A DNA stretch of 64,000 nucleotides, from sequence record KX130863; one strand, given 5' to 3'. This DNA is from Shigella phage SHSML-45. This document shows positions 29,623-55,990 of the stretch, in pieces. Every line of letters begins with the position of its first letter. The first letter of the stretch is position 1. The notes under the pieces are model-generated. The model was not told the origin of the DNA and made no database searches. It worked only from the letters and a program-made list of their open reading frames with translations. Both the position numbers and the translations under genes were made by a program.

Positions 29623-30123
29623 TTTAAGTATTTTTAAGAACTCTCGTAAAAACTCTTAAAAATACAGACGATACCGGGAGAGTCATAAGTCTCACTCATT
29701 AAGTATTTCAAGACAAAATACAGTAACGTCTATTATTTTCCAGTTTAAGTCAAGGTGACTTAGTGGTTATGTCCTGCGGTATACTGAGGACTCGGTTAGG
29801 TTAGGGTCATGACTCCCCACCTTTTGCTGCTACTCAACAGGAGTTATCGCGAATTACCTGTGCTATTGTGCACCATTAGTGACATCTCTCATGTCAGCAT
29901 TTCCCACTTTGTGGATAGCTTGAAAAACTACTCCGATATGGAGAAAGAACTTCACTATCCTAGAATACCTTCTAAAGTTCTTCTTTAGCCTGGACATAGT
30001 TAAATCGTAATAAAACTATTCAGCAGACTGGTTGGTTAGTCTGGAACCAACTACCGCGTGGTTTAGGCAGTGCGCAACTAACCTCGGAAGCTTTTACGTT
30101 AAAAGCACCAGTTATCCAGTTCT

Positions 30124-30195
30124 TACCGACCGTAGGATTCGAACCTACATCTTCCACCAGTTACGGCTTGATAATACCGTTTATACTAGATCGGC
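30124..30195 (-). tRNA. tRNA-like element (anticodon arm unresolved, CCA not encoded)
   Basis: Canonical T-arm GTAGG-TTCGAAT-CCTAC and acceptor GCCGATC/GGTCGGT with two G-U pairs; no standard anticodon stem found. Confidence 0.35.
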
Positions 30196-30308
30196 AGTGT
30201 TACTACATAAGTGATTTCCACACCCCACTATTTATAAATTAGAGAAGAATTACTCTCTAATTTATGAATATATTATACAGAATTTATAAGCATTTAGCAA
30301 ATGAATTT

Positions 30309-46778: not shown

Positions 46779-47060
46779 ATGAGAGAGTTGCTTCCTAAAG
46801 TAGATGTCTCCCATCTTGGAGAGCCTAGTGAAGAACGTAAGGCTCTAGATTGGTTGGGTGGATTTGATTATCGTCGTGTTGTTGCAACATGGAATGATAA
46901 GAAAGTTAAGAAGTTTCGGGTACATTATGTAGGTAAAGACAAGTGGCTCTGGATTGATTATGAAGAATCGAAGGGGTCTACTAAGGCTGTGAAAATTTAT
47001 TGTATGTATGGGTATTATTATGCTCACTGTGACAAGAATGAATTTACAGTACAGAACTAA
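46779..47060 (+). CDS. hypothetical protein (93 aa)
   Basis: ORF behind promoter and leader. Confidence 0.55.
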   Translation: MRELLPKVDVSHLGEPSEERKALDWLGGFDYRRVVATWNDKKVKKFRVHYVGKDKWLWIDYEESKGSTKAVKIYCMYGYYYAHCDKNEFTVQN

Positions 47061-47069
47061 GGAACAAGA

Positions 47070-47273
47070 ATGAAAAACGTAAAACACCTTAAATATCGCT
47101 TAATTTACAACGGACGTATGGAAACAGAAGACCTAGCTCAATTAGCTATTAATTCTAATGAGGTCACGGTACGTGCGTTAGCTATTGAAAAGTTGCGGGC
47201 TTCTTATGAAAGTCGTATTATGGAACTAGAGGAGAAACTTTATGGCATTCTCGAAGCCGATGCTACCAGATAA
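47070..47273 (+). CDS. hypothetical protein (67 aa)
   Basis: ORF. Confidence 0.45.
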   Translation: MKNVKHLKYRLIYNGRMETEDLAQLAINSNEVTVRALAIEKLRASYESRIMELEEKLYGILEADATR

Positions 47274-47631
47274 GGGTTTAAACGCCGCTTTGGAAAACGC
47301 ATTAATGCAGCACTGGTTCTCTGTCAGGAATGAGATGGAGAACGTTCAGATTATGACCGGATTAGATCTTATCGATCGTTTTCTTGGTACAACGGATTTT
47401 ACTGGTGGTGGGCTATCTAGGGGTAATTCTGTTCTTCGCTTCGTTGAAAAGCATAAGCTCAAACATTGGTGTGTGCTGGATGATGCTGGTGCTATGATGT
47501 ATCAGTACCCAACGGTTATAGTCAACGGTAGAACTGGAATAAATCTTCAAGATTTAAGAGCTGTTAGCTATATGCTAGAATTTAGCCCAGATCTTGAAAT
47601 GTGTAAATCCTTACAACAATTTAAGGTGTAA
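47242..47631 (+). CDS. hypothetical protein (129 aa)
   Basis: ORF. Confidence 0.5.
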   Translation: MAFSKPMLPDKGLNAALENALMQHWFSVRNEMENVQIMTGLDLIDRFLGTTDFTGGGLSRGNSVLRFVEKHKLKHWCVLDDAGAMMYQYPTVIVNGRTGINLQDLRAVSYMLEFSPDLEMCKSLQQFKV

Positions 47632-47633
47632 AT

Positions 47634-48062
47634 ATGTTCAATAATGTATTCTCTAAAGAAGCTAACCCAATTTTGGTTAACTTTTGGCGTACTCTCCCGG
47701 CTAGCCTGTATAATGAGGCTATTAATGCTCTGAAAATATGGTGTGAAAATAATGAAATCTCCTTTGCTTTTAAAGATGATATTGATGAGGCCCCCTGTAT
47801 TGGTTTAGTTGTGCAGGTAGAGGATGGTCTTGAAGAGATTGTGGGCTGGAAAGAGTTGGATGAAATGGGGTTGGTTTTTGCATTAAACTATAAGCTATTT
47901 ATGCCCAATAAACACCGTATTGTTGTTAATTATAAAACCAGTGAATCTCCTGGTTTTCAAGTTAATGAACACTACGGTTGGTCTTACTCACCGGAAGAAG
48001 TAAATGATGGTATCCAAAAACTTCGTCGTTTTGGTTATCAAATTCCCGGTTTAACTGCCTAA
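47634..48062 (+). CDS. hypothetical protein, tandem paralog 1
   Basis: Shares ..PC(I/V)..MGL(V/I)(F/V)ALN(Y/F)(K/S)LF(M/H)P..IPGL.. with the next ORF. Confidence 0.55.
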   Translation: MFNNVFSKEANPILVNFWRTLPASLYNEAINALKIWCENNEISFAFKDDIDEAPCIGLVVQVEDGLEEIVGWKELDEMGLVFALNYKLFMPNKHRIVVNYKTSESPGFQVNEHYGWSYSPEEVNDGIQKLRRFGYQIPGLTA

Positions 48063-48071
48063 GGGGACACA

Positions 48072-48464
48072 ATGGAACAAGTATATTGGCGTCAGATTGA
48101 TCCTAGTTTGGTGAATCGTGCGGAGAAGCTGCTACAACGTTGGTTGGGGGTAAGACAAGCCTCCTTCACTTTTCCAGAGCAGCAAATAGATGATCCCTGT
48201 GTTGATGTTTTCCTATCAGGCTACGCTAGGGAATGGGAATTGGATTGGAATGAGTTGTCTGCTATGGGTTTAATTGTTGCCCTAAATTTCTCTTTGTTCC
48301 ATCCACGTGGTTTGGCCATATGTCGTGTGCCTGATGACGGTTGTTCGCCCCATCTTTTACAGGTGGAAGATGATATTTGGGAGTACACTCCAGATATTCT
48401 CAAAGAAGCCAAAGAACAATTAAACCGTGTTGGAATTTATATTCCAGGCCTGAATGATGAATGA
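48072..48464 (+). CDS. hypothetical protein, tandem paralog 2
   Basis: Paralog of 47634..48062. Confidence 0.55.
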   Translation: MEQVYWRQIDPSLVNRAEKLLQRWLGVRQASFTFPEQQIDDPCVDVFLSGYAREWELDWNELSAMGLIVALNFSLFHPRGLAICRVPDDGCSPHLLQVEDDIWEYTPDILKEAKEQLNRVGIYIPGLNDE

Positions 48465-48603
48465 TTTTTATTAGCTGAAATTTGTAATCCGGGCTATTAG
48501 TGCTCGGATTATTACATAATCTTTCCAGTCGATTGACAGTCAAAATAAAATGTCGTTGACAATTTGGATGGATTATGTAATAATATATGTATTGGAGGTG
48601 AGG

Positions 48604-49056
48604 ATGTCATTCACACAGCAAGAACTTTTAGATAACTTCCGATATGAAGATGGTAAGTTATTTAGAACTACAGGAAGAAATGCAGGGAAAGAATGTTGTG
48701 TTTCTACGGGTAACGGATATTATCGTATATCTCTAGGGAATAGGACTATGCTTCGGCATAGAGCAATATTTTTAATGCATCATGGATACTTACCTGATTT
48801 AGTAGATCATGTGAATACTATAAAAGGTGATGATCGTATTGAAAATCTTAGAGAGCAGACAGTGTCCGGTAATCTAAGAAATATCAAATATAAGAAAGGA
48901 ATGCATGTTTACCCTTCTGGTAGTAAGAACTGGCAAGTAGTATTTACTATTAACCGTAAACGTATAGTTAAAGGAACATATGACAACTATGAGGTTGCAT
49001 GTTCTATGGCCAAGATGTTTAGAGGTCAATTATACGGTAGGGAATCAATCCAGTAA
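48604..49056 (+). CDS. HNH homing endonuclease (start at Met with GGAGGTGAGG RBS)
   Basis: HRAIFLMHHGYLPDLVDHVNTIKGDDRIENLRE motif. Confidence 0.75.
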   Translation: MSFTQQELLDNFRYEDGKLFRTTGRNAGKECCVSTGNGYYRISLGNRTMLRHRAIFLMHHGYLPDLVDHVNTIKGDDRIENLREQTVSGNLRNIKYKKGMHVYPSGSKNWQVVFTINRKRIVKGTYDNYEVACSMAKMFRGQLYGRESIQ

Positions 49057-49064
49057 AATTTCAT

Positions 49065-49094
49065 TTGCAAGGGAGTATTATTTTATAGTATAAT
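49065..49094 (+). promoter_or_regulatory. promoter plus leader unit, copy 1
   Basis: TTGCAA-N18-TATAAT followed by the 40-nt leader TGAGAGACATTAGTAAAAATTGATTTTGCTAATTTTTCT. Confidence 0.5.
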
Positions 49095-49186
49095 ATTCCC
49101 ATAAATGAGAGACATTAGTAAAAATTGATTTTGCTAATTTTTCTCTATGTTCAAAGACACTGGTAGCAGCCCCGGGAAAAATTTAC

Positions 49187-49215
49187 TTGCATGATGCCCA
49201 AAATCTTGATATAAT
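49187..49215 (+). promoter_or_regulatory. promoter plus leader unit, copy 2
   Basis: TTGCAT-N17-TATAAT followed by the identical 40-nt leader. Confidence 0.5.
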
Positions 49216-49712
49216 ATTTATATTGAATTGAGAGACATTAGTAAAAATTGATTTTGCTAATTTTTCTTGTTTACAATCCGCGATACGGAACAGTTAGGCT
49301 GCCCCATTAAGGGTTGTTTTAACTATTACTAGTGTTTATATTGCATTAGTTAATCTTCAATTAAGTGATCTGTGTACCCTGAATTCGGAAAGGTAAATCC
49401 AAACCGTGCATGTTTAGCTCGTTATATAGGCAGAGCTTTATATGGGGGTGCGAACGAAAAGAGCAGCGAATGGCGGCACGTACAGTAGTCACCTACCAAT
49501 AGGATAGTGAGGACAAATAGAATCGGCTTAGCGGCCAATGACCTAGGTTCTATTCTGTATAAGAGCGAAGAGAGCACAGCACTGAGATATGATAACTTAT
49601 TCATATTGTTTGATGATAATTGATGTTTACGTAAATAGTAGTAATAGTTGTTCTATTCTTTCTGAATAGTCCTAAAGAAAACTTATTTCATTTCCAACAC
49701 AGGAGTATTGTT

Positions 49713-52502
49713 GTGTTTTCAATCCTACAAGGTCATGCAGGATTTCATCGCGATTTAGCCACAGGCAATTGGCGAGAAATCAAAGCGGAAGATTATACCT
49801 TTGCCAAGCGATTCTCGAAAGAGCATCCAGAAGGTAAACCAGCTTCTATGCCCTTCAAATTTGATGTAATAGAAGAGCACGACCCACAAAGCCTGGCCGA
49901 AATGTTACCCCTTATGAGACGTTTAACGTCTGACCCTCATATCGTTGCGGTACGAGGTCGATGTCTTGCACCTAAAAATAATGTGCGGCGTAAGAAAGGT
50001 AACTTTAATGTATCTAATCCTAGTAATATTATTGCTATGGACGTGGATGGTATCCTAGATACCGGTGGGTACGACAAATTTAATCTTGTTGGTATGGCCC
50101 GCCACATTATTAAGATGTTGAATAGTATTAGTGAGGATATGTTTCCTCTTAATGCAGGCTTTATAGCTCATGCATCGTCTTCGGCTGGGCTAAAACCAGG
50201 TATCCGAATGCACTTAATGCTAGAATCTAACGTCAAGGTAACTCAGGGTCAGCTAAAGTTCTTATTTACATCTATCAACGATAGTAGTAAGCAAAAATTT
50301 GGTTTTGATATTGCCGACCTAGCTTATTATTCATCTGTCCAGCTCCACTATTTTGCCGACCCCTTATTTAGCGATGGTATTGTTGATCCGTTTAAAGCGG
50401 AGAGTAAGCCACGTCTGGTGTATGTTAAAGGTTCGAAAGTAAATTTGCCCAATAATCTGGTTGACTATGAAACAACTAGAGGGGAGTTTAAGGAAGAGTT
50501 TTATTCTTTACTTGATCAAATTAAAGGCAAAAAGATTGCTTCTGATAAAGTAGAAGAAACCATCAGCGAGTTAGAAGAAGCTGATGATGGAGTGTATTTG
50601 CGTATTATCCCCAAACTATACCATAGGGCATTAGAGGATGGTGTTGATTTTGCATGGCTAGAACGTGAGATTAAACCAGCTTTATCTGAATATATTGCAA
50701 CTAAAGATAACAGTCGTAACATTCAAGATTACTTTAATAACGGTCGTAAGCAGGCTCTCAAAGCGTTTGTTAATAATTCTAAACGTGAGATTCCATTAAA
50801 TCTGAAAGGTGTTCCACTTAAGAAATTAGAAGTGGATTCTCCACCAGAAGTTCCATACCTGAAGATTAACATTGTGCCACCAAAAGGCCATATAACATTT
50901 GTTAAGGCAAGTCTTGGTACTGGTAAAACTACGGCAGTAACTAAATGGCTGGACGCAGGTGTTCTTCCGGGCAACTTTTTAGCAGTTACAAATACTAGAG
51001 CACTGGTATCTTCAAATGCCAAGAAATTTAGTGCAGGACAATACGATAAGTCTGTAGATATGCTCAACTTTAAACGTGGAGCTATTGATCGTATGTCCAC
51101 AACTATTCACTCTTTGCATAAGTTCAAAAGTTTTATTGGTCAAATAGACACCATTTTTATTGACGAATGTGACGCTGTAATGAATGATCTATTATTCGCC
51201 CCTGTTGTTAAACAACGCCGCGAGTGTATTCAAGTTCTACGTGACATCCTCATGACAGCTAAGACTGTAATTTTATCCGATGGTGATATTAGTGCTGAGA
51301 CGATTGAAGCATATGGTTCTCTAATTGATTTTGATAAACCAGTAGCATTTTATAATCATCACCGTAAAATGCTGTCAAAAGCTCATGCTTATGAATTCCC
51401 TGACGAATCCAGTATTTGGGTTGCACTTCAGACTTCTCTAGAGATGGGTGAGAAATCTATTCTAGTATCTGATTGTGGCCCAGATGAGCTGAATGAGAAA
51501 GGTATGGCATTACGTCGTAATACTGGTGCGTTAGTTAAAGAAATCCATTCAAACTCCACTTCAGATGTGGATATTCGACGTATTCTGGATTACACGACTA
51601 ATGAGCTAATTGATCAACAAATTGATTGCTTATTATGTAGTCCATCCGTAACGAGTGGTGTTGACTTCAATTACTTTGATAACGTATTTGTTATTACTAG
51701 AACTAGTAATCAAGCGCCAAACATGCGTTTTCAAGCAATCAGGCGCGACCGTGGTGCTCAGAATATCTATTATTTTATTGATAAATCCACTAGTGGGTTC
51801 TCCGCAGGTTCTGAACAATATAATATTGATGAAGGTTGGCTGGAGTTAGCACAGCAATTATATGCACGTCGTAGGGAATTAGAATCTAGGAACTATACTA
51901 GTACCTTACGTTATTACTTGCTTGATCAGGGTGCAACTATTGATATTTTCAGTGAAAGCTGGGGAACTATTGAAGGTGCTGGTAAAGAGTACACAGAAGA
52001 GCGAATAAAAGCTATTCTGCACTCAACTCCTGATTATTGTGCTCCACGTCATGCGGATGCGTATGAAGCTAAACTACTTCTTGTTCGCTATTATCATCTT
52101 GAGTCTATTAAAGATGTAACAGTTGAGCATGTTGAACAATATATCAAAGATAAACCGAATGATCGAGCTGCATTCTTCCATAAGATGCACGAGATGTTCT
52201 GGGAAGATATTAAGAAGTGTTCAAACGTCACTATCAAACCATTCATAGAAGCTCTGAAAGGTAAGAAGAAAGATTTCTTCCTTAAAACAGGTCAGAGTGC
52301 TAATCCAAAATATGCTAGAATGTATCTTGGTATGATGGGTATTGGTAAGGATATGAACACTGAAAATATCGTAGACTGGTATAGAACCTACTGCAAAATC
52401 GAATGTATGCCGATTCCTTATAAGTTTATGACTGATGAGGAGAAACATATGCATGATGAAGCAATGTCAGAGCTAGGTGCTAGAAATGACAGTGAAGAAT
52501 AA
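49713..52502 (+). CDS. large P-loop NTPase / helicase-like replication protein (possible origin-binding or primase-helicase)
   Basis: GTG start with AGGAG RBS; Walker A SLGTGKTT, Walker B IFIDECD; N-terminal IAMDVDG segment. Confidence 0.65.
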   Translation: MFSILQGHAGFHRDLATGNWREIKAEDYTFAKRFSKEHPEGKPASMPFKFDVIEEHDPQSLAEMLPLMRRLTSDPHIVAVRGRCLAPKNNVRRKKGNFNVSNPSNIIAMDVDGILDTGGYDKFNLVGMARHIIKMLNSISEDMFPLNAGFIAHASSSAGLKPGIRMHLMLESNVKVTQGQLKFLFTSINDSSKQKFGFDIADLAYYSSVQLHYFADPLFSDGIVDPFKAESKPRLVYVKGSKVNLPNNLVDYETTRGEFKEEFYSLLDQIKGKKIASDKVEETISELEEADDGVYLRIIPKLYHRALEDGVDFAWLEREIKPALSEYIATKDNSRNIQDYFNNGRKQALKAFVNNSKREIPLNLKGVPLKKLEVDSPPEVPYLKINIVPPKGHITFVKASLGTGKTTAVTKWLDAGVLPGNFLAVTNTRALVSSNAKKFSAGQYDKSVDMLNFKRGAIDRMSTTIHSLHKFKSFIGQIDTIFIDECDAVMNDLLFAPVVKQRRECIQVLRDILMTAKTVILSDGDISAETIEAYGSLIDFDKPVAFYNHHRKMLSKAHAYEFPDESSIWVALQTSLEMGEKSILVSDCGPDELNEKGMALRRNTGALVKEIHSNSTSDVDIRRILDYTTNELIDQQIDCLLCSPSVTSGVDFNYFDNVFVITRTSNQAPNMRFQAIRRDRGAQNIYYFIDKSTSGFSAGSEQYNIDEGWLELAQQLYARRRELESRNYTSTLRYYLLDQGATIDIFSESWGTIEGAGKEYTEERIKAILHSTPDYCAPRHADAYEAKLLLVRYYHLESIKDVTVEHVEQYIKDKPNDRAAFFHKMHEMFWEDIKKCSNVTIKPFIEALKGKKKDFFLKTGQSANPKYARMYLGMMGIGKDMNTENIVDWYRTYCKIECMPIPYKFMTDEEKHMHDEAMSELGARNDSEE

Positions 52503-55018: not shown

Positions 55019-55990
55019 ATGACTAATGTAAAAGAATTTATTAAACGCTGTCAAGAAGCATATTATCAGGGTATGTCTTTAATCTCTGATGAGGAGTATG
55101 ATTGCCTGGTAAAACGCTTCCCGTTAGAAGAAGAGATCGGGCCTAAGGGTGATATTCCACACCTATATCGTATGTATTCTTTACAGAAAGTTTATTATAA
55201 CCGTGGGGATAAATCACCATTTAATCCTTTAGGTCAGGTAGAAACTGATAAGTTAGATGGTTGTGCAATTTCTCTGCTATATATTAACGGTGAATTTGTT
55301 CAAGCATTAACCCGTGGTAATGGTATTCTGGGAAATGATGTCACAAGCAACGTAAGATTGCTGAACATCCCTAAAAAGATTTCCCAAAAAGTACCTACTC
55401 AAATCACTGGTGAAGTTCTAATTACAAAAGAAGTAGAAAATAAACGTAACTTTGCCTCTGGTGCTATTAACCTCAAAGATAGTGATGCTTTCATACAACG
55501 CATTGGAGAAGGCGGTTTAATCTTTGTTGCTTATGGTATCCAATGTTCTGCTGAAGCTGTAGGTATTACAGAAGCATACTTAAAAGATATGCTTTGGCTA
55601 GAGAATGAGAACTTCTTAACAGTTGTTAATGTGCGTTCCTTCTTTAAATGGATTCCGACGGACGGTAAAGTTGTTCGTATTAATGACAACAACAAATTCT
55701 TCCGTGAGGGCTGGACAAATAAATTCCCTCGTGGAGCATTCGCCATTAAAGAGGATGAAGAAGGCGAGATTACAACTCTTACTAAAGTTGAATGGCAGGT
55801 AGGGGCTTCTGGTAAAGTAACTCCAGTTGGTTATTTCGAACCGGTAATTATTGATGATGCTACGATTGTTAAAGCGACTCTTAATAACGTTGATTATATT
55901 AACTCTCTCGATCTAGAGATCGGTTGCCAGATTCGAGTGATTCGTGCCGGTGGTGTAATCCCGTGCATAGTAGAGCGAGTATACGATTAA
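55019..55990 (+). CDS. NAD-dependent DNA ligase, N-terminal adenylation/OB fragment
   Basis: LigA-like N-terminus (EEYDCLV) and KxDG adenylation motif (KLDG). Confidence 0.75.
   Translation: MTNVKEFIKRCQEAYYQGMSLISDEEYDCLVKRFPLEEEIGPKGDIPHLYRMYSLQKVYYNRGDKSPFNPLGQVETDKLDGCAISLLYINGEFVQALTRGNGILGNDVTSNVRLLNIPKKISQKVPTQITGEVLITKEVENKRNFASGAINLKDSDAFIQRIGEGGLIFVAYGIQCSAEAVGITEAYLKDMLWLENENFLTVVNVRSFFKWIPTDGKVVRINDNNKFFREGWTNKFPRGAFAIKEDEEGEITTLTKVEWQVGASGKVTPVGYFEPVIIDDATIVKATLNNVDYINSLDLEIGCQIRVIRAGGVIPCIVERVYD

Follow-up and report, generated by a model that had tools for sequence, protein, structure and literature searches.

A putative conserved structured RNA in the leader of the D2 helicase gene of T5-like phages

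The 64,000-nucleotide stretch of Shigella phage SHSML-45 analyzed here (record KX130863; hereafter the window) contains, near mid-genome (~47% of the genome), a long untranslated interval between an early promoter and the gene for a replication helicase, D2. Comparison of this interval with its counterparts in related phages strongly suggests that positions ~49222–49712 are the template of a conserved, structured plus-strand RNA, expressed from a sigma-70 early promoter; because no terminator is predicted before the helicase open reading frame (ORF), this RNA is predicted to be the 5′ leader of the D2/OBP mRNA. It is a large, apparently undescribed structured RNA conserved among enterobacterial Demerecviridae, where its architecture recurs in at least six lineages of divergent sequence. 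We favor a reading in which the leader acts at the RNA level and in connection with D2, as a post-transcriptional control module, and assign this reading as a whole a probability of about 0.6.

The window and Salmonella phage Shivani (Tequintavirus, Demerecviridae) share 99.9% identity, with window position 48900 corresponding to position 55506 of the Shivani record; in the leader comparisons and fold figures below, "Shivani" denotes the sequence matching the window. The downstream gene (ORF 49713–52502, plus strand) starts at a GTG at 49713, preceded by the Shine-Dalgarno sequence AGGAG at 49701–49705, and encodes a 929-aa "replication origin binding" superfamily 2 (SF2) helicase (Pfam Herpes_ori_bp; PHROG 3712). 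It is homologous to T5.108/T5p106, that is, to D2 of T5, the "replication origin binding protein". The T5 enzyme was shown to act as a bipolar helicase, for which a role in initiation was proposed, and was amplified and expressed with a sense primer beginning at the GTG homologous to 49713 (Wong, Sayers and Sanders 2013, PMC3632103).

The promoter native to this site, promoter P2 (TTGCAT-17-TATAAT with an A/T-rich upstream tract; 49187–49215, plus strand), was read from the sequence, with a transcription start site (TSS) predicted at ~49222. It fails the −35 rule of a generic promoter scan, yet agrees with the consensus given for T5 promoters in the AKFV33 record (TTGCTT-N17-18-TATAATA). Two T5 records, NC_005859 (58999–59073) and AY692264, annotate a homologous promoter, and P2 is kept in all T5-type relatives aligned. 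The untranslated length is ~491 nt from the predicted TSS of P2 and ~612 nt from that of a second, upstream promoter (promoter P1, discussed with the adjacent endonuclease gene below). A preliminary description of this region, made from the window alone, had called it GC-balanced; this holds for the middle, where GC peaks at 0.48 (49400–49549), and fails for the flanks, at 0.29–0.31 over 49100–49324 and 0.29 over 49550–49699.

Architecture and conservation of the leader fold

Leaders of T5-like phages fall into two types. Type A comprises the 273 of 524 T5-like records that align to Shivani over the whole leader (87–99% identity); in most of the remaining records (type B), the flanks align at ~97–98% and the central ~300 nt, of equal length to that of type A, are unalignable. 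Separate RNAalifold runs on the two types (18 type-A sequences and 10 of type B) returned the identical architecture. The A/B breakpoints lie inside a long-range inverted repeat, with a compensatory pair, AACUAUUAC/GUAAUAGUU versus AACUGUUAC/GUAACAGUU, and core type tracks the obp clade without exception in 32 phages.

From its 5′ end, the predicted plus-strand fold begins with a terminal stem-loop, P0 (49230–49268), in which GAGAGA pairs with UUUUCU around a 10-bp inner stem (minimum free energy −12.7 kcal/mol; z −4.05 against shuffled sequences). Similar three-tier hairpins of different sequence occur in L041, L061, Klebsiella, My1, Providencia, and Proteus phages (z −3.4 to −6.1), and overall the hairpin recurs in 7 of 8 lineages. 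The Shivani record annotates this hairpin as a terminator. We rejected it as an intrinsic terminator or attenuator: its stem is A/U-rich and is not among the terminator-like sites of our scan, which requires at least three G-C pairs; the U-run pairs with the 5′ GAGAGA; and the Klebsiella, Serratia, and Providencia homologues keep the hairpin without the U-tract. P0 is followed by the motif ACGGAACAGUUAGGCUGCCCCAU (49285–49307), nearly invariant in T5-A, T5-B, L041, My1, and Klebsiella phages, which contains a small hairpin, CAG-UUAGG-CUG (49291–49301). In L061 this hairpin reads CGG...CCG, a compensatory change of A-U to G-C.

Next comes a rod, P1, recognized from inverted repeats and by RNAalifold, in which 49320–49360 pairs with 49610–49650. 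The rod comprises 35 A/U-rich base pairs with small bulges—in Shivani, 19 and 16 bp around a 3x4 internal loop—and clamps the ends of a ~330-nt domain, inside which several helices form a G+C-rich core that includes an invariant GCUUAGCGGC hairpin. Duplex z scores for the rod are −6.3 in Shivani, −5.8 to −7.5 in other T5 types, −6.0 in L041, −4.0 in My1, and −3.1 in L061, and weak in Klebsiella phages; rod sequence differs in each lineage, with equivalent rods of −31 to −43 kcal/mol in five other lineages. Within the core, helix P2 joins 49364–49386 (AGUG..CUGUGU...) to 49563–49583, and a three-way sub-domain, P5 (49480–49560), carries an arm, P5b, capped by the invariant mini-hairpin GGCU-UAGC-GGCC (49525–49536). 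The sequence CTTAGCGG is invariant in every enterobacterial lineage examined, including Providencia and Proteus, with the exception of Serratia phage Kamaji; in P5b, the invariant CUUAGCGG cap sits on stems that differ in eight lineages, again including Providencia and Proteus. A hairpin with two compensatory pairs, H3 (49586–49607), follows the 3′ strand of helix P2, and its equivalents elsewhere carry the loop AGUUGCCA. Between the rod and the ribosome-binding site (RBS), where a generic scan predicts no plus-strand terminator, lies a small hairpin, H4 (CUAUUC-UUUCU-GAAUAG; 49653–49669), with counterparts in Klebsiella phages (CUAUC/GAUAG) and L041 (CUUUCC/GGAAAG); it is followed by ~30 A/U-rich nt, AGGAG, and the GTG.

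Several measures indicate that this fold is maintained as RNA. Prediction for the whole Shivani leader gave a z score of −3.05 on the plus strand versus −0.98 on the minus strand, and for the 332-nt core −3.74 versus −1.49; 23 of 153 pairs are G·U, and would be A·C mismatches on the opposite strand. Within type A alone, the 153 pairs are 99.8% paired and 12 of them show double changes, as compared with 4.7 ± 1.2 in shuffles (0 of 500 as high) and 0–1 when partners were slid; four compensatory pairs fall in the P5 sub-domain. Across lineages, a plain MAFFT alignment of 12 sequences from six lineages (T5-A, T5-B, L041, L061, My1, and Klebsiella) yielded 55 pairs de novo in RNAalifold, 34 of them with changes on both sides. 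Pairing is retained in 90.9% of cells (76.7 ± 1.0 in shuffles), with 93 double-change cells as compared with 32; none of 500 shuffles reached any of five measures, and slid controls gave 9–14 double-change pairs. Helix P2 is illustrative, with double changes across lineages in seven of its nine pairs (CUGUGU/GCACAG, CUGCGU/GCGCAG, CUACAU/GUGUAG, CUACAC/GUGUAG, and CUAGAA/UUCUAG). The preliminary description had counted a structured RNA among its possibilities, naming structure prediction and covariance among related phages as ways to check it; both came out clearly in its favor, and the reading is strongly supported by a conserved, covarying, plus-strand-specific fold across divergent relatives in a region with no conserved ORF.

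The absence of a credible ORF before the GTG, likewise proposed in that description, was also borne out. No ORF with an RBS was found between either promoter and 49713, which is the start from which T5 D2 was expressed; no leader ORF of at least 25 aa is conserved between lineages or matches PHROGs; and a conserved small ORF was sought in relatives, with none shared between lineages or between types A and B. ARAGORN identified no tRNA or tmRNA in the leader. Variability is lower in the leader core (18%) than in the opening 480 nt of obp from the same phages (26%), and Shivani and SE18 are 92.5% identical in the leader as compared with 85.5% in obp. Variable columns are distributed over the three codon positions as 12/24/25 in the core, with no third-position excess, versus 20/16/89 in the first 480 nt of obp. 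Together, these comparisons suggest that selection acts on RNA and not on protein. That the region encodes one or more unannotated small proteins is scarcely credible: several ORFs of 26–60 codons do occur on both strands, some GenBank records annotate hypothetical proteins, and a 43-codon minus-strand ORF is kept within type A, but nearly all substitutions in this last ORF change an amino acid and fall in compensatory RNA pairs, and the distribution of variable columns and the lack of any shared ORF or PHROG match argue in the same direction. Several T5-like records (e.g., among those of vB_Sen_I1, SB13, PMBT31, and Es2) annotate two to four "hypothetical proteins" inside the D2 leader; these are probably over-predictions, since their ORFs are not conserved and the RNA covaries.

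Occurrence of the leader RNA in phages and elsewhere

Throughout the family, a long non-coding gap separates promoter and obp. It measures 488–491 nt in T5 types, 479 nt in Klebsiella Sugarlandvirus, 479 nt in L041, 520 nt in L061, 466 nt in Pectobacterium phage My1, ~610 nt in Providencia phages, ~760 nt in Proteus phages, and 320 nt in Serratia phage Kamaji; a gap of ~600 nt is present upstream of obp in the two Vibrio phages examined (Achelous and VCPH) as well. The spacing of two sequence anchors is 233–247 nt in all six lineages and that from rod to start codon ~55–65 nt in core lineages, and in every case the RNA immediately precedes obp and shares its strand. An optional 97-nt insert was identified in 51 T5-like records (90–100% identity, one copy per genome), directly after P0; it is a self-contained stem-loop flanked by TTTTTCT (e.g., L004:1568–1668, which is DT57C; also L023, L036, and L045), and is present in both type-A and type-B backgrounds, as expected of a tolerated expansion in a structured RNA.

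A sequence-profile search did not detect the Providencia, Proteus, Serratia, or Vibrio leaders, and Providencia and Proteus phages share with the core lineages only the CUUAGCGG-capped hairpin and the overall architecture. The Proteus leaders (L069, from phage PM135, and L070; ~760 nt) fold very well (z −5.1), and in these phages a sigma-70 promoter close to consensus (TTGACA-18-TATAAT; L069:1435–1465) separates the RNA from obp. Among the Vibrio phages, the VCPH leader (L013:895–1503) is unannotated and well folded (z −3.5), and the Achelous record (L012) annotates a 56-aa ORF in the gap. The Vibrio leaders have no detectable sequence similarity to the enterobacterial RNA, and could be an extremely diverged homologue or an analogue.

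Querying Rfam 15 with positions 47000–51000 returned no match at E ≤ 1; with the leader alone at E ≤ 10, the best hit scored 17 bits as compared with a threshold of 35.6, and the leaders of six relatives returned no match except a terminator look-alike (28.7 bits, threshold 100). A pattern requiring both conserved motifs at the correct spacing gave 33 hits in IMG/VR, of which 30 are in T5-like contigs, only upstream of obp, and three reflect chance; in 596 Gb of bacterial genomes the same pattern gave 52 hits, none confirmed by nhmmer. Mimicry of a host or plasmid sequence was considered and rejected, as blastn against 5,426 E. coli genomes and PLSDB returned nothing. Literature searches found neither a description of the leader RNA nor a T5 transcriptome, and T5 records annotate the promoter only, leaving the following ~470 nt blank. 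The leader RNA is a candidate addition to the few large ornate RNAs known from phages. T5 has long served as a model phage, and a conserved RNA before D2 offers a mutable handle on the timing and dosing of replication initiation; the isostructural, unalignable A and B alleles and the 97-nt insert provide natural experiments for structure-function work.

Possible roles of the leader RNA

We propose that the leader exerts its effect as RNA, most likely in cis, to control the replication initiator/helicase. The 5′ hairpin P0 would protect the transcript against 5′-end-dependent decay, a classical device, and the long rod would serve as a double-stranded processing site, an RNase III-type substrate, whose cleavage would separate the core from the D2 message and set the stability or translation of that message anew. 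A factor encoded by phage or host, perhaps D2 itself, may dock on the conserved core; the invariant loop and conserved junctions suggest a bound partner. The P1 rod shows what is expected of RNase III stems, namely at least ~20 bp of near-continuous double-stranded RNA whose length is kept while its sequence drifts. The D2 leader resembles RNase III-processed leaders (lambda N, pnp, rnc, the T7 early R sites, and rRNA stems) in that a key early gene has a strong early promoter and an extended untranslated region, in which a long double-stranded stem separates the 5′ end from the RBS; it resembles pre-rRNA in that the stem joins both flanks of a folded RNA. Unlike in those systems, the stem encloses a ~250-nt multi-helix core with invariant loops, beyond the needs of a cleavage site; cleavage is in this case a prediction, and there is no sequence or Rfam relationship. 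In size and long-range pairing that could join distant segments, the leader also resembles the ~500-nt leaders of E. coli rpoS-type long 5′ untranslated regions, from which it differs in that leader–RBS pairing at D2 is not above chance.

Several observations weigh against control of D2 in cis. The TSS, read-through, and processing are predictions, and the covariation alignment is sequence-based (MAFFT); the helices scored are those that stay in register. The 5′ leader is no more complementary to the RBS/start region than shuffled sequences are (z ~0 in 11 lineages), and no expression platform is visible; because leader–RBS pairing is at chance level, how the fold alters D2 translation is not evident. 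RNase III control needs a simple hairpin only, and the ornate core suggests a further function, possibly in trans. In Proteus phages, the promoter downstream of the RNA indicates that the RNA may be functionally independent of obp expression. Two specific mechanisms were considered and set aside. Anti-Shine-Dalgarno sequestration, for which RNAalifold paired UUCUUGU with ACAGGAG, is not claimed, as duplex energies equal those of shuffles in 11 lineages. A riboswitch was rejected as well: the core is clamped by the rod without an alternative partner, and there is no above-chance leader–RBS pairing, downstream terminator, or Rfam riboswitch match.

Two of these observations keep alive an unlikely alternative, in which the rod is cut (e.g., by RNase III, as rRNA stems are) and releases a stable ~300-nt, stand-alone RNA that acts in trans as a replication or packaging cofactor or an anti-defense decoy, its position in the D2 leader merely supplying a strong early promoter. 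The lack of an expression platform and the separate obp promoter of Proteus phages are the reasons that this possibility survives. Consistent with it, the 35-bp rod joins the ends of a compact, ornate core and keeps its length while changing sequence, the invariant loop nucleotides suggest a partner, no link between fold and RBS was detected, and the core is exchanged as a cassette (A or B) with breakpoints in the outer rod. Against it stand the fixed position of the RNA upstream of obp, with its near-constant distance to the start codon, and the lack of a terminator or other 3′-end signal after the RNA; processing of the rod is itself a prediction. The leader RNA is like the ornate RNAs ROOL, GOLLD, OLE, and raiA and the phi29 pRNA in its large, intricate fold and conserved loops, and several of these are phage-encoded; unlike them, it is fixed in an mRNA leader, confined to one phage family, and has no Rfam 15 match. 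A bolder proposal, in which we place little confidence, is that an excised, Demerecviridae-specific RNA (a ~330-nt core with the 35-bp rod) serves as an RNA component of replication initiation; if so, it could act in licensing, positioning, or priming for the D2 helicase, and the interchangeable A and B cores would be cassettes that set specificity, each matched to a D2 clade.

ColE1 RNA II is typified by a long structured untranslated transcript, and the presence of one here recalls a transcription-activated or RNA-primed origin, in which transcription would open A/T-rich DNA or leave an R-loop or primer onto which D2 is loaded; R-loop or primer formation would depend on the RNA fold, as in RNA II. 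The locus lies directly upstream of the presumed initiator, a strong promoter is followed by A/T-rich DNA (a weak point in an A/T-rich genome), and D2 has been proposed as a replication initiator (PMC3632103). Core type also tracks obp clade in all 32 phages; obp nucleotide identity between A and B (84%) is, however, about that within A (85.5%), and because this divergence between types equals that within type A, the tracking can be explained by physical linkage. No GC-skew inflection occurs at 49.5 kb—cumulative skew turns at ~43 kb, at the switch in gene orientation—and neither iterons nor DnaA-box-like repeats were found. Recombitron editing of T5 showed one strand preference along the genome, from which its authors infer replication mainly from one end (PMC10055335); this strand bias argues against a dominant central bidirectional origin. 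The D2 leader shares with ColE1 RNA II and plasmid rep leaders (R1 CopT, IncI/IncB repZ) a ~500-nt structured, untranslated, replication-linked RNA with 5′ stem-loops, and with the antisense-controlled rep leaders a position upstream of an initiator gene, but it has no leader peptide and no predicted antisense promoter or RNA (no promoter-like site was found on the minus strand within 49100–49712); unlike RNA II, its transcript enters an ORF rather than ending at an origin, for which there is no evidence here. With no skew inflection, no iterons, and contrary strand bias in T5, the transcription-activated origin put forward in the preliminary description gained no positive support, and we consider it improbable.

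Very improbable, in turn, is a purely DNA-level element—an origin, a protein-binding site, or a miniature transposable element with terminal inverted repeats—in which case the predicted fold would be incidental. A ~290-bp segment is indeed flanked by 18-nt inverted repeats, and exists in two alternative forms of equal length. However, pairing is kept in part through G·U pairs, the minus strand folds no better than shuffles, internal helices covary too, and the segment is present in a single copy per genome at a constant syntenic site, with no copies in hosts or plasmids. A miniature inverted-repeat transposable element in particular was rejected on the single syntenic copy and on the covariation of its "terminal repeats" between lineages.

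Separately from the leader, GC skew passes from negative to positive at ~43 kb, coinciding with the switch from minus- to plus-strand genes. This is the only inflection in the window, and makes ~43 kb a better compositional candidate for a point of replication or transcription divergence than the D2 leader.

Tandem promoters, the HNH cassette, and neighboring genes

The doubled promoter-leader arrangement reported in the preliminary description is real. A direct repeat of 42 nt occurs at 49103–49144 and 49226–49267 (41 of 42 positions identical; 123 bp from start to start), and its 32-nt core, GAGAGACATTAGTAAAAATTGATTTTGCTAAT, has exactly two occurrences in the window, where shuffles predict none. 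Each copy begins 2–4 nt past the predicted +1 of a T5-type promoter. Promoter P1 (TTGCAA-18-TATAAT; 49065–49094, plus strand), found by the generic scan with a predicted TSS at ~49101, precedes leader copy 1 (49103–49144), a plus-strand hairpin with a U-run identified from the repeat family and an eight-phage alignment; native P2 precedes leader copy 2 (49226–49267), which forms P0.

Alignment of the interval from the T5.107 homologue to obp in eight phages suggests how this arrangement arose. BF23, DT57C, SE18, GSW6, IME178, and T5 have no HNH cassette, and show a terminator, one promoter, and one leader. In AKFV33 and BB1, an HNH cassette is followed by the cassette promoter and then the leader, and the native terminator and promoter are gone; the P1 sequence lies 3′ of the HNH gene in both phages, as the sole promoter there. 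The order in Shivani is cassette, P1, leader copy 1, native P2, and leader copy 2, with leader copy 1 occupying the T5.107 terminator position of HNH-less phages and its TTTTTCT joined to the sequence that normally follows the terminator's TTTTCT; the shared TTTTCT marks the junction with native DNA. The cassette (48556–49144) combines an HNH domain with presence/absence polymorphism at one intergenic site among close relatives. Its homing-endonuclease gene (48604–49056, plus strand; Pfam HNH_3, E 2.9e-11) starts at 48604, following the coding sequence of the Shivani record, and not at ATG 48550 of the longest ORF; the promoter scan places a strong promoter of its own, TG-extended TTGACA-17-AATAAT, at 48556–48584 (plus strand). 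The full double arrangement is observed only in Shivani (two accessions) and vB_SLGBLB0002.

These comparisons indicate that a single promoter-leader unit is the ancestral state, and that the cassette, carrying its own promoter and a copy of the leader start, inserted at the upstream T5.107 terminator and replaced it. Because relatives have one unit and the second copy travels with the HNH cassette, the tandem promoters of Shivani are a scar of homing-endonuclease mobility with no regulatory design, and the notion of a designed tandem feature was not upheld. The tandem state is potentially unstable, in that recombination between the 42-nt repeats would yield the AKFV33/BB1 state. Tandem promoters, A/T-rich DNA, and proximity to replication genes also characterize the T7 primary origin (phi1.1A/1.1B) and the T4 oriF/oriG pairing of a promoter with a DNA unwinding element; here, in contrast, the tandem state is limited to Shivani and one further record and was made by the HNH cassette, and the T7 and T4 origins need no conserved RNA fold, whereas the fold is the conserved feature of the D2 leader.

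Several observations concern the neighboring genes. The helicase core of D2 (residues 392–708; window 50886–51836) has a match to the plasmid replication proteins of NCBIfam CyRepA1 (E 6e-35, below the cut-off of that family), which ties phage D2 to plasmid initiators. The N-terminal domain (residues 1–300; window 49713–50612) returned no match in Pfam, NCBIfam, or PDB sequence searches, and a single-sequence AlphaFold model of it was discarded at a predicted local distance difference test (pLDDT) score of 38. Across eight lineages, with identity down to 31%, this domain retains an invariant DxD (D110 and D112, in AMDVDG), H167, and D202, a pattern that recalls the catalytic motifs of archaeo-eukaryotic primase/PrimPol enzymes. 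Two adjacent paralogous DUF7415 genes (window 47634–48464), homologues of T5.106 and T5.107, lie directly upstream in T5-type lineages, and their products are candidate partners of the leader RNA. Elsewhere in the window, ARAGORN identified a tRNA-Ser with the unusual anticodon ACT at 30123–30196, at the edge of a minus-strand tRNA cluster (23.8–30.2 kb).

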